Below are positions 6,650-31,034 of a DNA stretch of 37,520 bases, piece by piece. The stretch spans positions 1 through 37,520 of the forward strand of contig JBFWJG010000022.1 in NCBI GenBank assembly GCA_050253335.1, written 5' to 3'. Numbering within the stretch: the first letter of the stretch is position 1; each line of letters starts with the position of its first letter. The translations under genes were made by a program, and so were the position numbers. A model generated the notes under the pieces. The model was not told where the DNA came from. It was given only the letters and a program-made list of their open reading frames with translations, and ran no database searches. Source of the DNA: Deferribacterales bacterium. Its GTDB lineage: Bacteria > Chrysiogenota > Deferribacteres > Deferribacterales > Geovibrionaceae.

Positions 6650-8431
6650 ATGCTTCCTCAGCACTGGAACGAATATTTGTCAAAAGTCGAGCACGCATTT
6701 CAGCCCATAGCCAACCCCTTCTCCGGAGTTACATTCGCCGTGGAGGCGCTTCTGCGCGGCTGGGAGAAATGCGGATTTGATTCCATAGCGGAATTTTTTG
6801 ACACGGCCTTCAGGGAAAACCTCCTTTTTCAGGTGGACCTGGAGCTCAGGCGGAAAGCCATGATGAAGTTCCGCACCATAGAGGGCTCCCGTAAGATGAA
6901 GCTCTTCTATAACTACGACATCCGCATTGTAAACATGCCCGACTTTGAAAAGGGGCGCACCAAGGCGCTCCTGAACGCAAACGACATTGAGCCTGATGCC
7001 TTCTGCTTTGAAATATCCGAACGCCACAAGCACAGTTTCATAAAGAACACCAAAAATATTTTCGAAAACGTTAAGCAGTACGGATGCCGCATAGCCATTG
7101 ACGATTTCGGCGCGGGCTTCGCCAATTTCGAGCTTTTCTATTATTCCGAGCCGAACTTCCTCAAGATAGACAAATTCCTCATTCAGGGGATAGACGAGGA
7201 CATCAAGAAAAAGAAATACTGCAGCAACCTTACAAGCCTCGCCCATTTCTTCGGCATAACCATAGTGGCGGAAGGGGTGGAGACCAAGAAGGAGTTCCTC
7301 ACCTGCAAGGAGCTGGGCTTCGACCTTATTCAGGGCTACTTCATACAGAAACCCTCAACGGACGCCAAAGAGATCATGCCCGTATACAACGCAGTTCAGC
7401 AAATAGACCAGACGGACAAACGGGATTTCAGCGAGGACGCCTACCTCATATCAAACGAAATAGTGAAGCTGAGCCCTGTTAACGTGAGCGAACCGGCGGA
7501 GCATGTTCTTGAAAACATACGCAACCACATGAACGTGCCCGTGGTTCCCATTGTGGATGATACGGACATGCCGCTGGGGATAATAAGCGAACGCAACCTC
7601 AAGGAATATCTTTACCACCCATTCGGAAAGGAGCTTCTGCATAACAAATCCCTCACGGTGAATATACGCAAGTTCATCACCTCCTGCCCGATAGTGGAGA
7701 TAAACGTACCCATTGAAAAGATCCTTGAGCTCTTCGTGGCGAACAAGGAATCGGACGGGGTGATTATCACCAAAGGGCTGAAATATTTCGGCTTCCTCAC
7801 CGCCCAGTCTCTACTGAACACCCTGAACGAGAAGAACCTCGCCTTCGCCCGTGATATGAACCCGCTGACCAAGCTTTCAGGCAACAGCCTCATAAACGGA
7901 TACCTGAACGATGCGTTCAGGGACGAACACAGCCAGTATTTCCTTGTGTATTTCGATTTTGACAACTTCAAGCCGTTCAACGACCGTTTCGGCTTCCGCC
8001 AGGGTGACAGAGCCATTGTTCTCTTCTCGGACATCCTGAAGAAAGACTTCAGCGGAAAGAACGAGTTCATAGGCCATGTGGGCGGGGACGACTTCTTCGG
8101 CGGCATAAGCTGCAACGGAATGGCCTGCACCCTTGCTGTTGAAAAAATCAAAAAGACAATCAAGAAATTCACCGACTCGGTAATCTCCTTCTACTCCCCC
8201 TCGGAAGTTAAGCAGGGCTATTACACAGGCAAGGACAGGCAGGGAAACGACTCAATATTCCCCCTTTTAAGCATAAGCGCGGCAATCATAGAGCTTCCTT
8301 CGGGGAGGAGGGAACACACGCCGGACGAAATAGCCAACATTCTGGCCGACCTGAAAAAGAAAGCCAAGGCATCTGAAGAAAAAATCGCCGTGGCCTCAAT
8401 AAGCGATGCTCTGGCGGAAGCGGCTCATTGA
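6650..8431 (+). CDS. EAL-CBS-GGDEF c-di-GMP phosphodiesterase/cyclase
   Basis: FQPI, EALLR, FEISE, DDFGAG, LKID, EGVET and QGY in the EAL domain; central CBS-like pair; DFDNFKPFND...GHVGGDDF in the GGDEF domain. Confidence 0.92.
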   Translation: MLPQHWNEYLSKVEHAFQPIANPFSGVTFAVEALLRGWEKCGFDSIAEFFDTAFRENLLFQVDLELRRKAMMKFRTIEGSRKMKLFYNYDIRIVNMPDFEKGRTKALLNANDIEPDAFCFEISERHKHSFIKNTKNIFENVKQYGCRIAIDDFGAGFANFELFYYSEPNFLKIDKFLIQGIDEDIKKKKYCSNLTSLAHFFGITIVAEGVETKKEFLTCKELGFDLIQGYFIQKPSTDAKEIMPVYNAVQQIDQTDKRDFSEDAYLISNEIVKLSPVNVSEPAEHVLENIRNHMNVPVVPIVDDTDMPLGIISERNLKEYLYHPFGKELLHNKSLTVNIRKFITSCPIVEINVPIEKILELFVANKESDGVIITKGLKYFGFLTAQSLLNTLNEKNLAFARDMNPLTKLSGNSLINGYLNDAFRDEHSQYFLVYFDFDNFKPFNDRFGFRQGDRAIVLFSDILKKDFSGKNEFIGHVGGDDFFGGISCNGMACTLAVEKIKKTIKKFTDSVISFYSPSEVKQGYYTGKDRQGNDSIFPLLSISAAIIELPSGRREHTPDEIANILADLKKKAKASEEKIAVASISDALAEAAH

Positions 8432-12927: not shown

Positions 12928-13545
12928 TTATCTGTCGTAGTAATAAAGCACAGTGCCCACTGTGCCTTCTGTCAGGCTGCTGCCGCACATCCCTTCCGCT
13001 GTCCATGCGGAACTGCCCAGAACACCGGCCTTTATTTTCCCTTTGGTTCCGTCCATTGTTTTATCTATCGAAGTATCAAGGCTCACGGCCGCATAGCAGG
13101 GGACATCCCTGAGCACTATCACGTTTTTGCCGTCCGCATCCTGAGCGAAATAAGCAAAGCCGAACCCGCCCTTCATAGAGGCAAGAGCCGAATTGCTTTC
13201 GTCCGAAAGCATTCCGACCGCTTTAAGCTCGCTGTAAGAGGTGTCCGGATCGTCCTGCGCTGTGCCTTCCGCGCATAATCCCGAAGGGGTTCCGTCAAAG
13301 TCGCTGAGGCTGAGAGCAAGCCCCTTTTCATCCACAAGCCCGTCACGGTCGCAGTCTCCGGCGAATCTGCCGAAGCGGTCGTAAAATGTGTACTGTATAT
13401 TTTCAAGGTTTTTCACATCAACAATGAAGCTCTTGGTCTTCGCCCCCTGAACAAGCTCTCTCCCCTTCACCACCATTCCGAGGATTATTCCGATAATAAC
13501 CAGAACAACCGCCATCTCCACCAGAGTAAAACCTTTTCTGTTCAT
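12928..13545 (-). CDS. Type IV pilin/pseudopilin with class III signal peptide
   Basis: MNRKG|FTLVEMAVVLVIIGIILG with Glu at +5; four Cys in the globular domain; start placed at ATG 13545. Confidence 0.9.
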   Translation of the reverse strand: MNRKGFTLVEMAVVLVIIGIILGMVVKGRELVQGAKTKSFIVDVKNLENIQYTFYDRFGRFAGDCDRDGLVDEKGLALSLSDFDGTPSGLCAEGTAQDDPDTSYSELKAVGMLSDESNSALASMKGGFGFAYFAQDADGKNVIVLRDVPCYAAVSLDTSIDKTMDGTKGKIKAGVLGSSAWTAEGMCGSSLTEGTVGTVLYYYDR

Positions 13546-13573
13546 AAAAATACCCGCATTTTTTCTTAAACCC

Positions 13574-13602
13574 ATCATATCAGCATTAAAGCGGCTAAAC
13601 AA
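13574..13602 (-). promoter_or_regulatory. Putative sigma70 promoter of the pilin gene
   Basis: Minus strand TTGTTT-17 nt-TATGAT with a TGn extension. Confidence 0.3.
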
Positions 13603-13662
13603 TAAAATCATCTTTCATCTTTTCCTGTTTGTTTTCCTCACTGTGTTGTTGTATTTTTATTT

Positions 13663-15006
13663 ATGAAATTTTTAGCCGCAGAATTTGAAGGAAACAGAAC
13701 GGACACAGCAACCCGCGCCGCCCTTTTTGAAAAGCGGAAAGGGCTCTTCACCCTTTCGGGAATGTTCTCCGCTAAGGCGGATGACCTGCTTTCCCTGAAA
13801 GGGAGCGAACCGCTGTTCATCTCCTGCGGCTGCCCTGATTTCTCCGCCGAAACAGTGTACACTCCTCCCGCCCTGAAAGGCTCATCCCTCAGGCTTTTTC
13901 TTAAATCAAAGGCCATGAAATCCGGCGAAAGAAGCACCGCTGTCTTCGGGAAATGCTCAAACACGGCAGACTCAGGCGAAAAAGCATGTCAGGTATACAT
14001 AATGCCTGACAGAACATACGAGCAGGAGAGCGGGCTGGACTATGAACAGCGCTCCGCCGCGGATATATTCACCCTCTCCCCAGCAGCCCTCAGCGGAATA
14101 AGCGCTGTCCTGTACCCTGACAGAACCGTTGTTCACGCGTATGCGGACGAAAACAAAGCAATAATCACCGCCTCCGCCGGAGAAAACATATTATACGCCA
14201 GAACCGCCCCGCGTCAGGACGGAACAGCGCTTGCAGACGAGCTTGACCTTACTCTGGCCTACATCACAAGAAACAGAGGCATCAGCCCCGGGCTTATCCT
14301 CCTCTCCGGCCTTTTCGCGACAGACGGACACACGGCGGACGAAGTGCGTGAGGCGCAGCCGGTGCAGGCAATCTGCGCCGCTCCCGACGGACTTCTCGGC
14401 GAATGCACGTTTGATGCGTTTCATAAAATAATAATCCCCTTCGGTGCTGTGCTGAACGGGGCAAAGTTTGACTTCACACCCGAAAAATACAGAAAGAAGA
14501 AAGCCTTCGCAAAGACAATGCTGGTTCTCAACTCGCTCCTTCTGGTGCTTCTTGTTGCCTTCACCGCGCTGAATCTCCATATGTTCTCATCCTATAAAAC
14601 AAAAACGGAAAAACTGACAGAAGCCGCATCCGCCCTGCGTGCGGACAGGGAAAAAACAGCGGAGCTTCTCGCCTCCTCCCCCTCTTCCGGATATCTGCTG
14701 ACCTACCTTGAGCTTCTTGCTGACAGAAACAAAAACCCCATAAGACACTTGCAGGCTGTGGAGCCGCTTATAATGCACATAGGATTTGACAGGGTGATAA
14801 TCAGCAGGACAGCCCCCGTTGCTGTCGCCGCCTCAAAGGAGTTCGGCACGCTCAATTCCCTCACGGAGTTTGAGGAAGAGATAAAGGCGGAGATAAACCG
14901 CCTGCAGTCCATGAAATACAGCGTTAAAGACGAAAGCAGATTCAGCTATGACGACCTCACAGCCCATGTGAAACTCAGCATAACCGCTCAGGGAGCGCCG
15001 GAATGA
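13663..15006 (+). CDS. PilM/PilN- or GspL-like alignment protein (cytoplasmic domain, one TM helix, coiled coil)
   Basis: Basic stretch followed by a TM helix (KYRKKKAFAKTMLVLNSLLLVLLVAFTAL); first gene of the secretin operon. The family is inferred from topology and position. Confidence 0.6.
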   Translation: MKFLAAEFEGNRTDTATRAALFEKRKGLFTLSGMFSAKADDLLSLKGSEPLFISCGCPDFSAETVYTPPALKGSSLRLFLKSKAMKSGERSTAVFGKCSNTADSGEKACQVYIMPDRTYEQESGLDYEQRSAADIFTLSPAALSGISAVLYPDRTVVHAYADENKAIITASAGENILYARTAPRQDGTALADELDLTLAYITRNRGISPGLILLSGLFATDGHTADEVREAQPVQAICAAPDGLLGECTFDAFHKIIIPFGAVLNGAKFDFTPEKYRKKKAFAKTMLVLNSLLLVLLVAFTALNLHMFSSYKTKTEKLTEAASALRADREKTAELLASSPSSGYLLTYLELLADRNKNPIRHLQAVEPLIMHIGFDRVIISRTAPVAVAASKEFGTLNSLTEFEEEIKAEINRLQSMKYSVKDESRFSYDDLTAHVKLSITAQGAPE

Positions 15007-15512
15007 AAATACTCGGCAGTTACAGGCTCTTTCTTCTGCTACTTGCCTCATGCGCCGTCACGGCGGGCATAGGGCTGACCGTGCTGAATCTCAATAAGTC
15101 TGCGGACAGGGCTCTGGCGGATATCAGTGCGCGCGCCTCGGTGCTCAGCGCGGAGAAGGCGGGGGCAAAAATTGACGCGCTGCACAAAGCGGCGGAAAAT
15201 GCGGATATATTCATTTTCTCCGAGAGCGACGCCCGCAGATGGTTTCTGGACGCGCTGGACAGCTTTCTCAAAAAATACGACGCAAAAGTTGTCTCCCCCA
15301 TGCAGAAGGCAGACAGCTCATTCCGAAGCAGGGTCTCATTCCGCTTCACGCCGAAAACACCGGCCGAACTGGCCATACTGCTGGAATACATGGAAAACTC
15401 GACCGCCCCAGTTTTCATAATAGAGAGCACCGCCTTCGTCAGTACAGACAGGGAAAAATACATAAACATCACTGCTGATATAATCCAGCCCTTTTACGGA
15501 GAAGGCAAATGA
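15003..15512 (+). CDS. PilO/GspM/MshJ-like membrane protein
   Basis: N-terminal TM helix, coiled coil and ferredoxin-like C-terminal pattern; ATGA overlap with the upstream gene. Confidence 0.55.
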   Translation: MKILGSYRLFLLLLASCAVTAGIGLTVLNLNKSADRALADISARASVLSAEKAGAKIDALHKAAENADIFIFSESDARRWFLDALDSFLKKYDAKVVSPMQKADSSFRSRVSFRFTPKTPAELAILLEYMENSTAPVFIIESTAFVSTDREKYINITADIIQPFYGEGK

Positions 15513-16039
15513 GAGCGGGCATTAAGGAAATCCTGATGATCGTGCTCCCCTTTGTGATAGCCTTCGGCGCCGTGTACGGCGTTTCCCTCGGCGGGGAATA
15601 CCTGACAATGCCTGCAAAAAAGCGGATAGAGCGTCTGCCCTCTTCCGCAGACAGCGCCCTGACAGCATACAGCGAACAGGCCTTCCGCCTCAGCGGCGCC
15701 GTTCTGCCCGCAGGAACAGAACACTTCACACTGCGCCCTCCGGATGACGGCGGGCTGATAGCCCAGTTCGACAACTCAGACATATACGAAAAACTCGCGG
15801 CGGCGGAAGCTTCCAGTCCGGAGGAAGCGGCGGCGGTGAGGGAAGAGCCAGAAGGCCCGCCGAAATACAGAATAAGCTCCATCCTCAAAGGGGAAGACAG
15901 GACATTCGCCGTAATTAACGGTAAAATATACCACAGGGGAGATAAAATCTCCGGAGATGAACAGATAGCCCGTATTGAAACACGCCGGATTCTTCTTAAA
16001 GGCAAATGGGGGGACAGATGGATTGCCGTAAATTTCTGA
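15509..16039 (+). CDS. MshK/GspC-like membrane-anchored protein
   Basis: N-terminal TM helix; C-terminal ISSILKG...AVINGKIYHRGDKI...IARIE beta domain immediately upstream of the secretin. Confidence 0.6.
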   Translation: MRAGIKEILMIVLPFVIAFGAVYGVSLGGEYLTMPAKKRIERLPSSADSALTAYSEQAFRLSGAVLPAGTEHFTLRPPDDGGLIAQFDNSDIYEKLAAAEASSPEEAAAVREEPEGPPKYRISSILKGEDRTFAVINGKIYHRGDKISGDEQIARIETRRILLKGKWGDRWIAVNF

Positions 16040-17535
16040 CAGTTTTGTTCACAGCGTTTTTTATCTTCGCCTGCTCCGCCAAAAAGCCGGAGCCGCCTGC
16101 GGCGCAGACAGAAGAACCTGCGAAGTCCGAACAGAAGGAAGTTAAGCTTCCCCCTCCGCCGCCCCCTGTTTTCGGAGGAGAGCTGAGAAAGCCCGATCCC
16201 CTCGAAGGGCGCCATGTCACTGTCAGCGCAGTTGAAGCGCCTCTCTCCTCAATTCTCTATATGGCGGCGGCGGAATCGGGCATGAACCTTGTGATAAGCC
16301 CCGAGATTGACATAAACAGACCTGTAACCCTGAACCTCAACCGCCTTCCAGCAAGGGAAGCCCTGAACATCATCACGGAAACAGCCGGAATATATTTCGA
16401 GACTGACGGCAACATACTCCGCATAAGACCGCTGGCGGCAAAAACATACAAGATCCCGTACATTCACACAGTAACCTCCTACTCGTCCAGACTGGGCGGG
16501 GATATAATCGGCGGCGCGGCGGAAAGCGCAGGCACAATGGCAGGCTCATACAACCTTGAGTTCACTAACCCCGGCGAAAGGAACGACCTCTTCAGGCAGG
16601 TCACCGAAGGGGTGCGGAGCATAATTTTCCCCGGCAGGAACACAGACTCCGGCAGTGAGACCAAAACAGCGGAGTTCTCCGCCTCCGGCGAAGGGTTCAG
16701 CCTCAATATGTTCACAGGCATACTCACTGTTCAGGCGGGCAGAGACAAGATTAAACTGATCGACAGATACATGGACTCCGTGCTGAAGGAAACATCCAAA
16801 CAGGTGCTCATTGAAGCCAAAATGGTGGAGGTAACGCTGAATGATACCAACTCCTACGGCATAAACTGGGACAACTTTTTCTTCAATGACCAGCTCCGCT
16901 ACAGGCAGAACTTCGCAACCTCCAGTGCGGCGGCGCTTGAGAACATCGGCCTGACCCCTGTCGCCGCAATCTCATACGCCTCAGGCGGAGCAAACGGCCT
17001 GCTTAATCTCCTCTCACAGCAGGGCAGGATCGAAACCCTCGGTAACCCGCGCATACGGGTGGTAAACGGCCAGAGCGCGATAATCTCCTCCGGCAGTCTT
17101 ATCCCCTACTGGGAAAAAAATGTTGAGGACGGAGAGGACCTCCGCCGTGTGGTTAGCTACAACAGGGTGACCATTCTGGACGGAATAATGCTCGGCGTAA
17201 CCCCCTACATACATGATGACGGAACAATAACCCTGAATATCATCCCCGTCTCCACCATGGCCGAAAAGGACAAGGTGCAGCTCGGCGAGGAGGGGGAGAT
17301 TGTGGCAAGCTTCCCTGTTCTGAACCTCAAGGAGGCGGGAACCGTGCTCAATGTCCGCAACGGCGAAACGGTTGTTCTGGGGGGAATGATAGATAACTAT
17401 GAGGAAAACACGGAACAGAAGGTTCCTTTTCTGGGGGATGTGCCCCTTGTGGGCAACCTGTTTAAGTCGGTAAATAAGCGCAAGGTCAAGAAAGAGCTTG
17501 TGATCTTCATAAAAACATCGGTGATCAGCATTTGA
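16018..17535 (+). CDS. Secretin (MshL/GspD/PilQ family), lipoprotein-type
   Basis: Lipobox-like IFAC; QVLIEAKMVEV, GINW, NPRIRVVNGQSA, GETVVLGG, KVPFLGDVPLVGNLF and ELVIFI secretin motifs. Confidence 0.92.
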   Translation: MDCRKFLTVLFTAFFIFACSAKKPEPPAAQTEEPAKSEQKEVKLPPPPPPVFGGELRKPDPLEGRHVTVSAVEAPLSSILYMAAAESGMNLVISPEIDINRPVTLNLNRLPAREALNIITETAGIYFETDGNILRIRPLAAKTYKIPYIHTVTSYSSRLGGDIIGGAAESAGTMAGSYNLEFTNPGERNDLFRQVTEGVRSIIFPGRNTDSGSETKTAEFSASGEGFSLNMFTGILTVQAGRDKIKLIDRYMDSVLKETSKQVLIEAKMVEVTLNDTNSYGINWDNFFFNDQLRYRQNFATSSAAALENIGLTPVAAISYASGGANGLLNLLSQQGRIETLGNPRIRVVNGQSAIISSGSLIPYWEKNVEDGEDLRRVVSYNRVTILDGIMLGVTPYIHDDGTITLNIIPVSTMAEKDKVQLGEEGEIVASFPVLNLKEAGTVLNVRNGETVVLGGMIDNYEENTEQKVPFLGDVPLVGNLFKSVNKRKVKKELVIFIKTSVISI

Positions 17536-18413
17536 AAAAACTCATGGCAGTCTCACTCACCGCTTTGTGCGCTGGTTTTCTCGCCGGCAGGCATTTTCCG
17601 CCTGAACAGGTTAATACAGAAACGCCCGAACTCAGGCGGACGGCGGAGTTTTCATTCGCGGAATCCGCAGTGAAAGTGAACACAGTGCCTGAGAAAGCGG
17701 AAATCCTGCCCGATGATTTATACATAAGGCTGAAAAACGAGGCTGAAAAAACCGCTGAGATAAAAGCCGCCGCTCCCGCTTCAAAGCCTGCCCAGCAGAA
17801 TGCGCCGGAGCCGCCGTTCATTGAGGACAGCGCGTCAAAGGCTCACAGGGAAGCCTCTTCCGGCATAAAAGCACTTGAATCGGGAAACTGCGCCGGAGCA
17901 TCCGTTCATCTGGAAAAGGCTTATTCACTGAAGAAAGATAAAAACATCCTCTCCCATTATCTGCTCTCCCTTCTTCTCTGCGGGGAAGCTGAAAATGCGG
18001 CGGAAAAAGCGAAGGCGGAAGCACAGTACACAGACAGCGGAGCCTTGGCGGATGTGATTGAAAACGCTGTGAAACGGGGCAGAGCGAAAGAAGCCGCGGC
18101 ATTCTTCAAATCACTGGGGATAACGGACAGCGGAAAGCTCCTCAACTCCGCAGGGCTGGCGTATGAGGCGGCAGGAGAAAAAGAGCGGGCCGCTGAAATG
18201 TATAAAAAAGCCTACCTGCTTTCGCCGGAAAATCCTTTCATATCCTTTTCCCGCGCAAGGGCGGCGGACATGGAGGGGGCTTACGCGGAGGCTGTTATTT
18301 TTTATGAAAAAACAGCCGCATCGGCAGTCAGCGCGGAGCTGAAGCACCGCTCCGTTTCACGCAGCGCCGAAATCAGGGAGCATCTGGCGGCGCAGAGCCC
18401 TCAAACTCCTTAA
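17532..18413 (+). CDS. TPR-repeat protein (MshN-like)
   Basis: N-terminal hydrophobic anchor; TPR-like helices (LNSAGLAYEAAGEKERAAEMYKKAYLLSPEN). Confidence 0.7.
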   Translation: MKKLMAVSLTALCAGFLAGRHFPPEQVNTETPELRRTAEFSFAESAVKVNTVPEKAEILPDDLYIRLKNEAEKTAEIKAAAPASKPAQQNAPEPPFIEDSASKAHREASSGIKALESGNCAGASVHLEKAYSLKKDKNILSHYLLSLLLCGEAENAAEKAKAEAQYTDSGALADVIENAVKRGRAKEAAAFFKSLGITDSGKLLNSAGLAYEAAGEKERAAEMYKKAYLLSPENPFISFSRARAADMEGAYAEAVIFYEKTAASAVSAELKHRSVSRSAEIREHLAAQSPQTP

Positions 18414-25787: not shown

Positions 25788-27551
25788 ATGGATATTTCAA
25801 AACTGAGAGCCGGACTCTCTAAATTCAGCCTGAGAAAATACCTTGACGGGCACGAAGATCTCTACATGCTTCTGACCGCCGTGGTTATAGGTCTGCTCGC
25901 CGGCGGCGGCAATATCATTTTCCGCCATATGATCAGCTTCTTTCAGGGAATTTTCTATGGAGACACCTCCGAATTCGCCCTTGAAACATTCAGAAACGCG
26001 CCCGTCTGGAAAATAATCCTCATACCCGCCGCAGGCGGTCTGATGGTCGGCATAATCTCAATTTCATTCAAATTCGCCAAAGGGCACGGCGTGCCTGATG
26101 TTATGCGCGCCATGGCGCTCAACCGCAACATATCTCCCCTTGTGGCGCTGATAAAGACCGTTTCCTCCGCCATTACCCTCGGCTCCGGCGGGTCAGCCGG
26201 ACGTGAGGGCCCCATTGTGCAGATAGGCGCGGCAATAGGCTCCGGCGTGGGCAAGCTTTTCAATTTCTCATCAAACAGAATGCGCACTGTGGCGGCATGC
26301 GGTGCGGCGGGCGGTCTGGCCGCCACGTTCAACGCGCCAATCGGCGGCGCCATGTTCGCGGCGGAAGTGCTCCTAGGCGAGTTCGGGCTCAAAACATTCA
26401 GCCCGATCATAATCTCCTCCGTTATAGCAACCGCCATATCAAGGGCTTATCTGGGGCATGAGGTAACCTTTGACGCACCCATATATGAACTTGTGAGCAT
26501 ATTCGAACTGCCTCTTTACGGAATCCTCGGTCTTGTCTGCGCGGTTGTGGGTGTTGTTTTCATACGCTCCTTCTACTTCATAGAGGGCAAGTTCGAAGCC
26601 CTTGCCGTTCCCTCATGGAGCAAGCCCGCCATAGGCGGTCTCATGATGGGCTGTGTGGCTCTCGCCTCTCCGGAAGTCATGGGCGTGGGCTATGACACAA
26701 TCATCAACGTGCTCCACGGAAGCCAGCTCGGAGCGTTTCTCATTGTTATAGTCGCGCTCAAAATAATAGCCACCTCCTTCACCCTCGGCTCCGGCGGAAG
26801 CGGCGGTCTGTTTGTCCCCTCACTGTTCATAGGCGCTGTCACAGGCGGGTTCTTCGGCTGGGTAGCGCACATGATTTTCCCCGCAAGCACAGCGGGCAGC
26901 GGCGCATACGCCCTTGTGGCGATGAGCGCCATGCTTTCCGCCACCCTGCGCGCACCCATGACCGCCATACTCATAATTTTTGAGATAACCCAGTCATACA
27001 CGGTAATCCTCCCCCTTATGATGACGGCTATTATAGCCAACCTCGCCGCAGAGAAGCTTGAGAAGGAATCGATCTTCACATGGGTGCTCACCAAGCAGGG
27101 AGTGCGCATAAAGAAAGGCGTGGAGGAAAAAATTCTGGAATCGATCCACGTGAGGGACGTTCTCTTCACCGGAGTCACATCATTCAGGGAGAACACCCCT
27201 TTCAGGGATATACTCAGCGGAATACAGTCCGCCCCTCATATGCACTTCCCGGTTCTGGACGGCAATAACTGCCTCATCGGCATGATCTCCCTTGTGGATA
27301 TTAAGGAAGTTCTTTTTGAACAGGGGCTTGAGGATATTGTAGTGGCGGGTGATATATGCACGAGGAAGAACATAATCTACCTTGAGCCGGAAAATACATT
27401 GACGGAAGCCATGGAAAAGCTGGGCAAAAAGGATCTGGAAGCGCTCCCCGTTGTGGAGAAAACCGCTGACGGACTAAAATTTACGGGGCTTCTCCGCAGA
27501 GGCGATCTCATAATAGCCTACAACAAGCGGGTTGCGGGCATCACTGACTAA
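25788..27551 (+). CDS. ClC-family chloride channel/antiporter with a C-terminal CBS pair
   Basis: GHGVP, GREGP, FNAPIGG...FAAE and GGLFVP motifs; CBS domains. Confidence 0.93.
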   Translation: MDISKLRAGLSKFSLRKYLDGHEDLYMLLTAVVIGLLAGGGNIIFRHMISFFQGIFYGDTSEFALETFRNAPVWKIILIPAAGGLMVGIISISFKFAKGHGVPDVMRAMALNRNISPLVALIKTVSSAITLGSGGSAGREGPIVQIGAAIGSGVGKLFNFSSNRMRTVAACGAAGGLAATFNAPIGGAMFAAEVLLGEFGLKTFSPIIISSVIATAISRAYLGHEVTFDAPIYELVSIFELPLYGILGLVCAVVGVVFIRSFYFIEGKFEALAVPSWSKPAIGGLMMGCVALASPEVMGVGYDTIINVLHGSQLGAFLIVIVALKIIATSFTLGSGGSGGLFVPSLFIGAVTGGFFGWVAHMIFPASTAGSGAYALVAMSAMLSATLRAPMTAILIIFEITQSYTVILPLMMTAIIANLAAEKLEKESIFTWVLTKQGVRIKKGVEEKILESIHVRDVLFTGVTSFRENTPFRDILSGIQSAPHMHFPVLDGNNCLIGMISLVDIKEVLFEQGLEDIVVAGDICTRKNIIYLEPENTLTEAMEKLGKKDLEALPVVEKTADGLKFTGLLRRGDLIIAYNKRVAGITD

Positions 27552-27582
27552 AAAAAGGGTGCGCCTTTCTGAGACGCACCCT
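27550..27582 (-). terminator. Intrinsic terminator between convergent clc and rsgA (U-tract on the minus strand)
   Basis: Stem AGGGTGCG...CGCACCCT (27556-27582) preceded on the + strand by an A-run. Confidence 0.7.
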
Positions 27583-27590
27583 GCTGAAGT

Positions 27591-28667
27591 CTATTTTCTC
27601 TTGTTTTTCAAATACTTCTTGAGCTGTTTCATTTCGCCTTTGCCGCCGAACATCCGTTTTATCTTCTCCTGCTCGGTCTGGCGGGAGCTCAGCCCGTCAT
27701 AAGCTGTTTCCCTGAGAAGCTTGAAATATCCTGCGAGGCGGCCTTCACTCAGCCCACCTTCCTCAACAGCCGCCCTGACGGCGCATCCGGGTTCTCTCAT
27801 GTGGGTGCAGTCGCGGAAACGGCAGTTTGCGGCAAGCCGCTCTATGTCCTCAAAAGCCTTTTCCAGATCCGCGGCGTAAAGGTGCAGTTCCCTCATTCCC
27901 GGGGTATCTATCACCGTTCCGCCCTCCGGCAGAAGCATCATCTCCCGGCTGGTTGTGGTATGCCTGCCCTTATCGTCGCCGGAACGGATTTCGTTCACCG
28001 CAAGGACATCACGCCCCATAAGCCTGTTGATCAGCGTGGATTTCCCCACGCCGGAGGAGCCGATGAAGGCTACTGTCTCCCCTTCCGCTATATATTTCCT
28101 CACTGTCTGCCAGCCGTTCTCCTCAAAGGATGAGCAGATGACAATCTCCGCTCCGCCGCTGACGGATTCCGTTTCCTCCAGCTTTTCAACCAGATCCGCA
28201 CACAGATCCGCCTTGGTGAGGATTATAACGGGCTTTGCCCTGCTCTCCCATGCGGCGGCGAGATACCGCTCAAGCCTGCGCAGATTGAAATCCGCGTTCA
28301 GCGCCATGCAGATGAAGACAGTGTCAATATTGGCGGCGACTACCTGCACGCCTCCGGCGGTTCCGGCCGCCTGCCTCACGAACAGGCTTCTGCGGGGGAG
28401 GATGCCGTGTATTGCGGCGTCACCTCTGCTTCCTTCCGTTCTGTCAACCATGACCCAGTCGCCAACAGCGGGAAAATCCGCTCCGGTTTCCGCCTCATGG
28501 AGCAGTCTGCCTGTCACTGACGCCTGAATCTCGCCGTTTTCTGTGATTACCTTATATAAATTGTGGTGCTGACCGGAAACTCTGGCGATGAACATTCCTT
28601 CATATTCAGCCGCTTCACCTGTCAGTTCTTCATTAAGTCCGTATTTTTTTAAATCTGTTCTGCTCAT
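27591..28667 (-). CDS. rsgA: Ribosome small subunit-dependent GTPase A, long-form paralogue
   Basis: Circularly permuted GTPase order TKAD, GSSGVGKS, GRHTTT, DTPG; Zn finger CRFRDCTH...PGC; ATG 28667 after GGAGG. Confidence 0.93.
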   Translation of the reverse strand: MSRTDLKKYGLNEELTGEAAEYEGMFIARVSGQHHNLYKVITENGEIQASVTGRLLHEAETGADFPAVGDWVMVDRTEGSRGDAAIHGILPRRSLFVRQAAGTAGGVQVVAANIDTVFICMALNADFNLRRLERYLAAAWESRAKPVIILTKADLCADLVEKLEETESVSGGAEIVICSSFEENGWQTVRKYIAEGETVAFIGSSGVGKSTLINRLMGRDVLAVNEIRSGDDKGRHTTTSREMMLLPEGGTVIDTPGMRELHLYAADLEKAFEDIERLAANCRFRDCTHMREPGCAVRAAVEEGGLSEGRLAGYFKLLRETAYDGLSSRQTEQEKIKRMFGGKGEMKQLKKYLKNKRK

Positions 28668-28734
28668 TTCATCCTCCGAAAATCTGACTTTTCCTCCGGA
28701 GGGTGTCAGGAGATATACGTTCTCCGCGCCCTCC

Positions 28735-28773
28735 TCAGGCGGGCACAATCTCCGTGTATTTACTCTTCATCAT
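28735..28773 (-). CDS. Putative leader peptide MMKSKYTEIVPA upstream of rsgA
   Basis: AAGGAGG, 7 nt, then ATG ATG AAG AGT AAA TAC ACG GAG ATT GTG CCC GCC TGA, followed by competing hairpins. Confidence 0.65.
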   Translation of the reverse strand: MMKSKYTEIVPA

Positions 28774-28892
28774 AAAAAAGCCTCCTTGTTCGGTATTCCT
28801 GTCTGTTTATAGCATATCCGCAAAAAAAGGGTTCTTTTAATCGCCCGTTTTCCCTATAATCAACCCAATTAATTAAAAGGTGTCCGAATATA

Positions 28893-31034
28893 ATGATCAA
28901 TTACAAAAACGAACTGAACAAGGGCCAGTATGACGCCGTGGTGCGCACTGATGCCCCGCTTCTTGTCCTCGCCGGAGCGGGAACGGGAAAGACAAGGGTT
29001 ATCACCTACCGCATAGCTTACCTTATAAATGAAACAGGCGTTGAGCCTGAACGCATCCTCGCCGTGACCTTCACCAACAAGGCGGCGGAAGAGATGAAAC
29101 ACCGTCTGCGCGGGCTTGTGGGCACTGCTTCCGCCTCGGTCTGGATGGGCACTTTCCACAGCATATCACTGCGCATTCTCCGCAGGGACGGCTCCGCAGT
29201 CGGGCTTAAACCCGGCTTCGGCGTAATAGATCAGGACGACCGCATGGCTCTTTTCCGTGAGGTCATCAAGACACTTAAAATTGACCACAAAAAATACCCG
29301 CCCAAACAGTATATGAACAAGATAAGCTGGTTTAAGAACACCCCGCAGTATGTTGAAGGGCAGATTCCCGATGCGGGAGCCTTCCACAGGGTGGACGAGG
29401 TTTTCAGGGAATACCAGAAACGCCTTGAGGAACAGTTTCTCATTGACTTCGATGATATGCTCAGCCTCACCATCCGCATGTTTGAGGCTTCCGAAGAGGT
29501 AAGGCAGTATTACTCCTCCATGTTTGAGCATATCCTTGTGGACGAGTATCAGGATACCAACGCGATTCAGTTCATGTTCCTGCGCCTTCTTGCCGGAAAA
29601 ACGGGCAAAATCTGCGTCGTGGGCGATGACGACCAGTCCATATACGGCTGGCGGGGGGCGGACATCCGCAATATCCTCGAATTTGACAAACACTTCTCGG
29701 ACGTGGAGATAGTGAAGCTTACAGAAAACTACCGCAGTACGGCAGATATTATCGCACGGGCAAACACCCTGATTAAAAACAATGCCATGCGCAGGGGCAA
29801 GGAACTCACCGCCCACCTTGAAACAGAAGGGGCTCTTGAGCACCACTCACTCCTGAATGAAACTACCGAAGCCGATTTTGTGACGAAAATGATCGTGAAA
29901 TACGCCGGAGAAGGGATAAGCTACGGCGATATGGCCGTTCTCTACCGCACCAACGCACAGTCGCGAAACTTCGAGGTAAACCTCAACAAAGCAGGCATAC
30001 CATACAAAGTGGTGGGCGGCACAGCCTTCTACCAGAGGCGTGAGATCAAGGATCTGCTAAGCTATCTGCGCTTCTTTGACAACAGTTTCGACAGCGTATC
30101 CTTCTCTCGAAGCCTCACCACCCCCTCAAGGGGAATAGGCACGACATCCATAGACAAAATAAAGGACTTTGCCTCCAAAAACGCAGTCAGCCTCACCGAG
30201 GCGGTGAAGCAGATGTTTTCCTCGTTCGGCAGGAGCCAGCAGGAGGCCTTCCGCCAGTATATAGGCATACTTGACCACCTCGCCTCCCTCACTAAGGTCA
30301 GCGAAATGGTTAACGCAGTCATAGAACGCACAGGCTACAAGGACTATGTTCTCGCCAACGAGAGCGAAGAGGAAGCGAAAAAGCGCATTGAAAACATATT
30401 CGAGCTTTACAACGCCGCGGTGGCCTTTGAGGAAACATCACCCGAAGGCACACTGACCGACTTTCTCGCCAGCACATCCCTCAGCACCTCCACGGACGAA
30501 GCCGCCGGAGACAGGGTAAGCCTCATGACAATCCACTCCGCCAAGGGGCTTGAGTTTGACACTGTTTTTCTCACAGGACTTGAGAACGGCCTCTTCCCCC
30601 TTTACGGCAGCATTGATGAGCCGGAACAGCTTGAGGAGGAACGCAGGCTCTGCTATGTGGGCATAACAAGGGCAAAGCGCAACCTCTATGTCACCTGCGC
30701 GGAATCACGCATTATATACGGAAACAGAACCGTGAGCGCCCGCTCATACTTTCTGGAGGAGATGGGGTTCGCCAAGGCGAAAGCGGCCTTTGCGCCCTCA
30801 AGCCGTCAGTTCGACCGCTTCCAGCCTCAGGTGAGAAAACCGGCGCAGACAGCAGGCAGCAGCGCCTCAAGCCAGACAAAGGCAGGGAAAAAGGTGCGAC
30901 ATGAAAAATTCGGCGAAGGGATAGTTATAAGCACCAGCGGGGAAGGAGCGGCGGAAAAGGCCGAGGTGTTTTTCAAAAACGCCGGAGGGCTGAAAAAAAT
31001 AGTCACTGCCTTCCTCACCTTCATTGATGAATGA
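28893..31034 (+). CDS. uvrD: UvrD/PcrA superfamily I DNA helicase
   Basis: AGAGTGKT, VTFTNKAA, VDEYQD, VGDDDQSIYGWRGA, NYRS, MTIHSAKGLEF and EERRLCYVGITRA motifs; Tudor-like C-terminus. Confidence 0.95.
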   Translation: MINYKNELNKGQYDAVVRTDAPLLVLAGAGTGKTRVITYRIAYLINETGVEPERILAVTFTNKAAEEMKHRLRGLVGTASASVWMGTFHSISLRILRRDGSAVGLKPGFGVIDQDDRMALFREVIKTLKIDHKKYPPKQYMNKISWFKNTPQYVEGQIPDAGAFHRVDEVFREYQKRLEEQFLIDFDDMLSLTIRMFEASEEVRQYYSSMFEHILVDEYQDTNAIQFMFLRLLAGKTGKICVVGDDDQSIYGWRGADIRNILEFDKHFSDVEIVKLTENYRSTADIIARANTLIKNNAMRRGKELTAHLETEGALEHHSLLNETTEADFVTKMIVKYAGEGISYGDMAVLYRTNAQSRNFEVNLNKAGIPYKVVGGTAFYQRREIKDLLSYLRFFDNSFDSVSFSRSLTTPSRGIGTTSIDKIKDFASKNAVSLTEAVKQMFSSFGRSQQEAFRQYIGILDHLASLTKVSEMVNAVIERTGYKDYVLANESEEEAKKRIENIFELYNAAVAFEETSPEGTLTDFLASTSLSTSTDEAAGDRVSLMTIHSAKGLEFDTVFLTGLENGLFPLYGSIDEPEQLEEERRLCYVGITRAKRNLYVTCAESRIIYGNRTVSARSYFLEEMGFAKAKAAFAPSSRQFDRFQPQVRKPAQTAGSSASSQTKAGKKVRHEKFGEGIVISTSGEGAAEKAEVFFKNAGGLKKIVTAFLTFIDE

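Follow-up and report, generated by a model that had tools for sequence, protein, structure and literature searches.

What does the leader of a long-form rsgA gene respond to, and does it act as a switch at all? The gene (27591-28667, minus strand, 358 aa; identified by TIGR00157 and by a fold model) lies in a 37,520-nucleotide stretch of a Deferribacterales genome, the whole of which is called the window below. Leaders that read stalled ribosomes usually mark genes handling drugs against the ribosome, and this is how HflXr and the ARE-ABCFs came to light. A sequence-only reading had proposed such a leader here, and each element that it named was found on the minus strand where it had been placed. 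In the direction of transcription, these are a Shine-Dalgarno (SD) sequence AAGGAGG (28781-28787), the 12-codon upstream open reading frame (uORF) MMKSKYTEIVPA* (28735-28773), a GGAGGG (28729-28734), a hairpin between GGAGA (28721-28725) and UCUCC (28709-28713), an anti-SD sequence CCCTCCGGA / CCCUCCGGA (28695-28703) and the rsgA SD region TTCGGAGG / UUCGGAGG (28673-28680), followed by the rsgA ATG at 28667. The sequence CCTCCGGAGG (28702-28693) is a perfect palindrome with a second GGAGG overlapping the anti-SD, and it is not kept in congeners. The leader layout occurs once, as a pattern, in the 2.58-Mb genome, where a uORF with a strong SD, defined by the rule used for the leaders below, precedes only 37 of 620 genes. 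A scan of the leader against Rfam 15 gave four weak matches, all far under the gathering score, and thus no described RNA family.

To describe the folding, the leader is divided into four segments. Segment 1 is UGUGCCC, from uORF codons 9-11 (28741-28747). Segment 2 is the anti-anti-SD GGAGGG-CGCG lying directly 3′ of the uORF stop (28725-28734), and segments 3 and 4 are the anti-SD and the rsgA SD region. The leader fold has a z-score of -2.6, and 3 of 200 shuffled sequences were as stable. The anti-SD:SD helix named in the sequence-only reading (3:4, -12.2 kcal/mol) is part of the minimum-energy fold. That reading had however overlooked a helix 1:2 between UGUGCCC (28747-28741) and GGGCGCG (28731-28725), computed at -13.8 kcal/mol, which sequesters the anti-anti-SD in naked RNA. 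The small GGAGA/UCUCC hairpin does exist, though not as a separate element, since it forms the tip (28709-28725) of the 2:3 stem (-18.9 kcal/mol). In these computations, naked RNA favours 1:2 plus 3:4 (OFF) over 2:3 (ON). Because helix 1:2 occupies the anti-anti-SD, the naked RNA is OFF and this copy is erm-like.

The effect of a ribosome was then computed by placing it at each codon in turn and folding the RNA on its 3′ side. With the present leader at equilibrium, the probability of the ON state, P(ON), was 0.01 for naked RNA, 0.04 at M1, 0.00 at S4-Y6, 0.42 at T7, 0.79 at E8, 0.03 at I9, 0.52 at V10 and 0.00 from P11 onward. This copy is therefore ON only at T7, E8 and V10, and unevenly so (compare I9 with E8). 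A congener leader, L004, stayed OFF at all stall positions at equilibrium (P(ON) ≤0.22). We also used a co-transcriptional model, in which the transcript ends just past the anti-SD. In that model all four genus leaders captured the anti-SD with the ribosome up to codon 9-10 and none of the four did so at codon 12; capture in this copy was ~0.55 at M1-M2 and rose to 0.8-1.0 from S4 onward. Since L004 is OFF and the present leader uneven at equilibrium, the model for this genus leans on co-transcriptional capture.

In order to follow the leader across relatives, 237 loci with an RsgA match were gathered, and 169 non-redundant leaders were kept after exclusion of 9 loci (no start codon, short upstream region or partial), 55 near-duplicates and 4 short-form controls. 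An anchored set of 74 leaders, carrying [G/T]GAGG followed by CCTCC, was chosen blind to uORFs; the exact layout is absent from the other 95 long-form leaders. An SD-led uORF translating the GAG as Glu is open in 65 of these 74, as compared to one leader for each of the two other frames. Eight leaders escaped the rule: in five, from this genus and L041, the stop comes ahead of the anchor, and in three no start reached the SD cut-off. The start codon lies exactly 13 codons upstream of the GAG in 53 of 64 cases. When 251 Bacillota genomes were searched with the layout pattern, 14 of 18 matches were upstream of rsgA, and 7 matches were obtained in controls. The idea that the leader also serves other genes was rejected, the four remaining matches having no uORF stop and lying inside coding frames.

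Covariation was examined at the flanks of the two competing helices, outside the cores used for selection, and was found in both. At position +5 of helix 3:4, 54 of 73 leaders have a Watson-Crick pair, compared with 23.5 for shuffled partners, and the pairs are of all four kinds (A-U 24, C-G 24, G-C 3, U-A 3). In helix 2:3, the counts were 47 versus 30.9 at position +5 and 42 versus 25.7 at position -1. Because the relatives are not independent, the p-values from shuffling overstate the significance. The homologue alignment suggested with the original proposal thus returned a conserved uORF frame (65:1:1) and covarying flanks in both helices. On this comparative evidence, the promoter, the uORF with its SD, the anti-anti-SD, the anti-SD and the rsgA SD travel with long-form rsgA in fixed register.

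Footprint folding of 68 leaders pointed in the same direction. P(ON) exceeded 0.5 in 60 of 68 leaders when the P site stood one or two codons short of the conserved V/A codon of the uORF; one codon past it, this held for none, and 61 were OFF. The median cost of opening the SD jumped from ~5 to ~12 kcal/mol within one codon of V, whichever footprint edge was used (+11, +13 or +15). Most relatives have a weak helix 1:2 and a uORF that continues through segment 2, which it reads as E-G or E-V. Without any ribosome 44 of 68 leaders were ON; with a ribosome stalled at the start codon the count was 43 of 67, and most relatives should therefore respond to any unfinished uORF. Overall, in constrained folding the rsgA SD is ON with the ribosome no further than codons 9-10 and OFF once it has moved past them. 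The switch logic put forward at the outset, in which a ribosome at the uORF end masks GGAGGG and keeps rsgA OFF and an earlier stall turns it ON, is therefore backed computationally by frame conservation, flank covariation and folding of 68 leaders. A ribosome-coupled switch very probably exists ahead of rsgA.

Some leaders depart from this arrangement. L022 has an insertion of ~85-100 nt between anti-SD and SD, and L068 has one between uORF and anti-SD, the elements being kept in both. A different leader was seen in L029, L043, L064 and L081, with a 5-6-codon uORF (MSVLR, MSAIR, MSAVQ, MMSVIR) ~200 nt upstream of rsgA and with a terminator-like hairpin followed by a U run. In L167, L169, L172 and L174, from distant Bacillota (~41%), uORFs of 11-12 codons with Val at codons 9-10 lie 150-220 nt upstream of rsgA, without the CCUCC layout.

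Upstream of the uORF, an extended -10-like element, TG-n-TATAAA (28806-28814, minus strand), is found without a consensus -35 and is kept in three congeners; it would place the transcription start at ~28800. A standard promoter scan of the locus gave no -35/-10 pair, and a similar -10 element occurs 33-74 nt upstream of the uORF in 37 of 69 leaders as compared to 4 of 69 in a control window. Downstream of the gene, an intrinsic terminator with an 11-bp stem and a U run (27549-27582, minus strand) faces the convergent clc gene. With the -10 element upstream and this terminator downstream, the cassette comprises a single gene. For the present copy we rejected transcription attenuation, since its leader has no terminator-like site on the rsgA strand. 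RNA contigs from a relative ~95% alike (three runs of one study) cover the leader and continue into the gene, one spanning 28633-28788 and another 28075-28725; they are a weak hint, as they carry no information on strand, level or start, and uncovered flanks mean nothing.

The inserted segment (27552-28892), defined by synteny, lies between clc, which ends at 27551, and uvrD/pcrA, which starts at 28893. It occupies this place here and in one congener. In three sister genera, represented by four genomes, clc and uvrD form a single operon with overlapping genes; the presence of the cassette at this point indicates that gene and leader arrived together. In those four genomes the overlap looks translationally coupled, and uvrD here must use a new divergent promoter. 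In a quick tree with SH-aLRT support only, built from 93 of 170 proteins and with the donor not rooted, the RsgA copies of the genus nest in a Bacillota-dominated clade (SH-aLRT 97), away from the RsgA of the sister genera. From synteny and tree, this rsgA is to all appearances a Bacillota-derived, horizontally acquired cassette. The query matched 17 of 63 genomes of the order, and no RsgA match at E ≤ 1e-20 was obtained with it in the other 46, many of them near-complete; RsgA may be dispensable in the order. Long-form rsgA was detected in 62 of 251 sampled Bacillota genomes at E ≤ 1e-60, and tblastn matches were obtained in 159 records of a plasmid collection, some of which are housekeeping copies or whole chromosomes. 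The gene is thus patchy, mobile and plasmid-borne. Among 61 flanking genes, no conserved partner was found that could serve as a clue to the inducer; same-strand neighbours are mostly unrelated to resistance, with a few GNATs, one ABC-F and one TipA. Elsewhere in the window, the list of open reading frames shows, on the minus strand, a prepilin-like gene that points away from a cluster of pilus/secretin type (12928-18413) and, at 6650-8431, a frame resembling an EAL-CBS-GGDEF signalling protein.

The protein scores 162 bits with TIGR00157 (cut-off 100) and is the only match over the cut-off in the genome. The term paralogue, applied to it earlier, therefore does not hold for this genome, where rsgA is the sole copy. 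It does hold for four Bacillota genomes that were checked, in which the long form stands beside a short CpgA-type copy; one further genome has the long form alone. The G motifs, the catalytic His and the zinc ligands are invariant in 76 relatives. The model (pLDDT 86) predicts the RsgA fold with extra N-terminal helices and a Lys-rich C-terminal helix pair. Its best PDB match is 7boi_W (E 7e-25), and none of the 12 PDB sequences matched in the fold search (23-28% identity) belongs to the long-form clade.

Long-form genes in other lineages bear on the nature of the signal. In the sister genera, long-form RsgA belongs to a distinct lineage (34-41% identical), whose leaders (L008-L018) are of another kind. 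In 10 of these 11 leaders, a uORF of 11-14 codons has [I/F]-[V/A] at codons 9-11 and often ends there; these leaders lack the GGAGG/CCUCC layout. Listeria monocytogenes long-form rsgA shows the same leader layout and boundary as the present copy: with the uORF MAIVKMENLIINTGVFYL*, the SD is computed to be freed at codons 6-10 and closed from codon 11. In this leader (L266, 3320-3431), a G-rich segment and GCUCCC replace GGAGG/CCUCC, and the gene, which from gene order is presumably lmo1332, stands between an mltG-like gene and pnp. In Streptomyces coelicolor, SCO6149, one of two RsgA paralogues, is reported as a direct WblC target, with 68.4-fold higher expression in wild type than in the wblC mutant under tetracycline and a ChIP enrichment of 29.0 (PMC7157823). 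SCO6149 is probably the long form. In large actinomycete genomes, a WblC-type promoter was found at the long-form copy in two of four loci, and the other copy lies beside aroA in two of two; SCO5211 we take to be the aroA-linked copy of S. coelicolor. Of the ten actinomycete loci scanned, two have WblC-type promoters and eight do not, and control windows have none. Among the actinomycete long-form rsgA genes, the uORFs of L285, L289, L293, L295, L296 and L297 have a strong SD and are Ala/Val/Thr-rich, and WblC-type promoters occur at L294 and L296, of which L296 may be under double control.

Together, the stall-reading geometry, the Listeria leader and the WblC-controlled SCO6149 point to translation stress as the signal. 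Our main reading is that the leader senses stalled or slowed translation broadly, acting as a translational attenuator of an accessory stress RsgA; we give it a probability of roughly 55%. In this mechanism, naked RNA of the present copy would be kept OFF by helices 1:2 and 3:4. A ribosome that runs to the uORF stop would cover segment 2, so that helix 3:4 forms and rsgA stays OFF. A ribosome held at or before I9/V10, and best at T7-E8, would cover segment 1 and leave segment 2 free; stem 2:3 would then form and open the rsgA SD. In most relatives, a stall at any point between the start codon and codon 9-10 would suffice. Since a start-codon stall leaves this copy closed (0.04), its own response would be narrower than broad. 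Natural signals would be translation-inhibiting antibiotics and other stalls, and the induced GTPase might help to mature or repair the 30S subunit under stress, as HflXr does for the large subunit. A putative protection against drugs by the RsgA protein itself is a more tentative proposal, with odds somewhat short of even.

Other readings keep the switch and change its trigger. The original one took K3-S4-K5 as a designed macrolide sensor, with macrolide/ketolide arrest there as the inducing event. The motif is indeed in this uORF, and a related one, RLR, marks macrolide leaders such as rli80/hflXr (PMC6310831). However, R/K-X-R/K is present in only 3 of 69 uORFs, K-S-K is not kept in the congener uORFs MMQKEYTGIAAA, MMLREHTEIASA and MRLKHQTEIAPA, and the two of these three congeners that lack R/K-X-R/K altogether are those whose RsgA is 95% and 88% identical. 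Moreover, equilibrium P(ON) is 0.00 at S4/K5 as compared to 0.42-0.79 at T7/E8. Because an S4/K5 stall does capture the anti-SD in the co-transcriptional model (0.81-0.98), it could act incidentally in this strain, not as a conserved design, and we consider K-S-K arrest improbable as the trigger. The conserved feature of the peptide is instead E8-I9-V10, that is [E/D/A/Q]-[I/S]-[V/A]: I/S (56 of 65) and V/A (57 of 65) stand five and four codons upstream of the GAG. In L034, L046, L051, L058 and L197 the three-codon motif is duplicated (e.g. EIV-EIA), with the second copy at fixed distance from the GAG. A switch tuned to one drug class through programmed arrest at this motif, either macrolide IAVV-like or of the phenicol/oxazolidinone type with its Ala/Ser/Thr context, would explain why the motif, 8-10 residues into the peptide, coincides exactly with the ON/OFF boundary. 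The recurrence of [I/F]-[V/A] at codons 9-11 in the sister lineage, where GGAGG/CCUCC is lacking and the RNA layout differs, argues for a role of the peptide as well. IAVV is described as a stall motif of ermA L1 (PMC12698558), and chloramphenicol is described to stall after A/S/T (PMC12121999), residues found at codon V-3 in 38 of 69 uORFs. I-A-V is present in a minority of uORFs and exact IAVV in none. Against such tuning, I and S occupy a common position but differ chemically. The codons of the motif additionally serve as an RNA arm: they pair with segment 2 (p 0.0005) or with the spacer behind the anti-SD (p <0.0005) better than shuffled partners do, upstream control codons giving no signal, and duplexes of the motif with segment 2 reach -8.3 to -11.7 kcal/mol in four genus members. 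Their conservation is thus partly structural. Since a stall at the start codon suffices to turn most relatives ON (43 of 67), tuning to one drug class appears unlikely, though it is the strongest of these competitors.

A slightly less probable alternative is a homeostatic feedback, in which 30S shortage, cold or starvation for Ile, Val, Ala or Ser cuts uORF read-through and thereby raises the amount of a 30S maturation factor. It would suit the 44 of 68 leaders that are ON without a ribosome and the function of RsgA as a 30S maturation GTPase, the only one in this genome; the antibiotic-sensing whiB7 uORF is reported to sense amino-acid starvation too (10.1101/2023.06.02.543512). Yet the leader uORFs show at no position the stretch of codons for a single amino acid that typifies biosynthetic attenuators, the present copy is OFF without translation, and a patchy, mobile, plasmid-borne gene is unlike a housekeeping loop. 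Finally, the SD-like words could be arranged by chance, without any regulatory role. The GGAGG/CCUCC cores were indeed the selection criterion, and 4 of the 18 pattern matches as well as the 7 control matches were chance occurrences; but the frame bias of 65:1:1, the fixed spacing, the flank covariation and the co-transfer with the gene make chance very improbable. The broad sensor of stalled translation stays our preferred reading. A wider proposal, on which we would not bet, is that long-form RsgA is a pan-bacterial mobile small-subunit antibiotic-response factor, the RsgA counterpart of HflXr, placed independently under several stall sensors (the anti-SD attenuator, other uORF leaders and WblC promoters), with [I/S/F]-[V/A] as the arrest motif naming the inducing drug.

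What the leader marks is a second RsgA that is widespread but annotated as an ordinary one. Should the modelled switch prove to work, it would offer a handle on the role of this extra RsgA and possibly on a route of small-subunit protection or repair. Literature searches on an rsgA leader, attenuation, uORF, RsgA paralog induction and lmo1332 returned no description of the leader, subscription papers being largely outside their scope. In the main texts of the ncRNA screens PMC11109978, PMC8632094 and PMC5737381, as far as accessible, rsgA, engC and YjeQ are unmentioned; their supplements may list the motif.

Compared with known systems, the leader belongs to an established type of attenuator, placed here before a class of gene that is not known to be regulated in this way. 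With ermC and ermA (ErmCL, ErmAL1) it shares an SD-led leader ORF and four segments that are OFF as 1:2 plus 3:4 and ON as 2:3, here by computation only. The predicted inducing position, around codon 8-9, is also shared, as judged from Ile9 of ermCL (PMC12121999) and from IAVV (PMC12698558). In contrast, the present leader controls a 30S GTPase and not an rRNA methyltransferase, rsgA leaders carry no exact known stall motif, and in most relatives the uORF crosses segment 2 and helix 1:2 is weak. Leaders of the R/K-X-R/K class are defined by a conserved motif that all but 3 of 69 rsgA uORFs lack. The toiL uORF of E. coli topAI-yjhQ also controls translation by SD masking, and stalls at several positions, from several drugs, are described to induce it (PMC12121999); in silico, rsgA leaders are ON with a start-codon stall in 43 of 67 cases and with late stalls in 60 of 68, while the present copy responds more narrowly. 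In the accessible account, toiL itself pairs with the SD and its target is a toxin-antitoxin pair, whereas the rsgA leader uses a separate anti-SD captured by an anti-anti-SD, so that complete translation would repress, and its target is a ribosome factor. As in rli80-hflXr of L. monocytogenes, an accessory paralogue of a housekeeping ribosome GTPase stands behind a uORF attenuator (PMC6310831). HflXr, however, acts on 50S/70S, with an RLR motif, transcription attenuation and demonstrated resistance reported in that source. The whiB7/wblC uORF and SCO6149 share with the mechanism proposed here the induction of a second RsgA by translation stress and sensing through a short uORF. There, induction passes through a transcription factor, and SCO6149 is listed but not characterised in the accessible text of PMC7157823. 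With RsgA/YjeQ/CpgA (TIGR00157; PDB 7boi, 5no2), the protein shares the OB fold, the circularly permuted GTPase, the zinc finger and the invariant catalytic motifs, whereas the long form constitutes a separate clade with extra terminal helices that is patchy, mobile and very probably leader-controlled.
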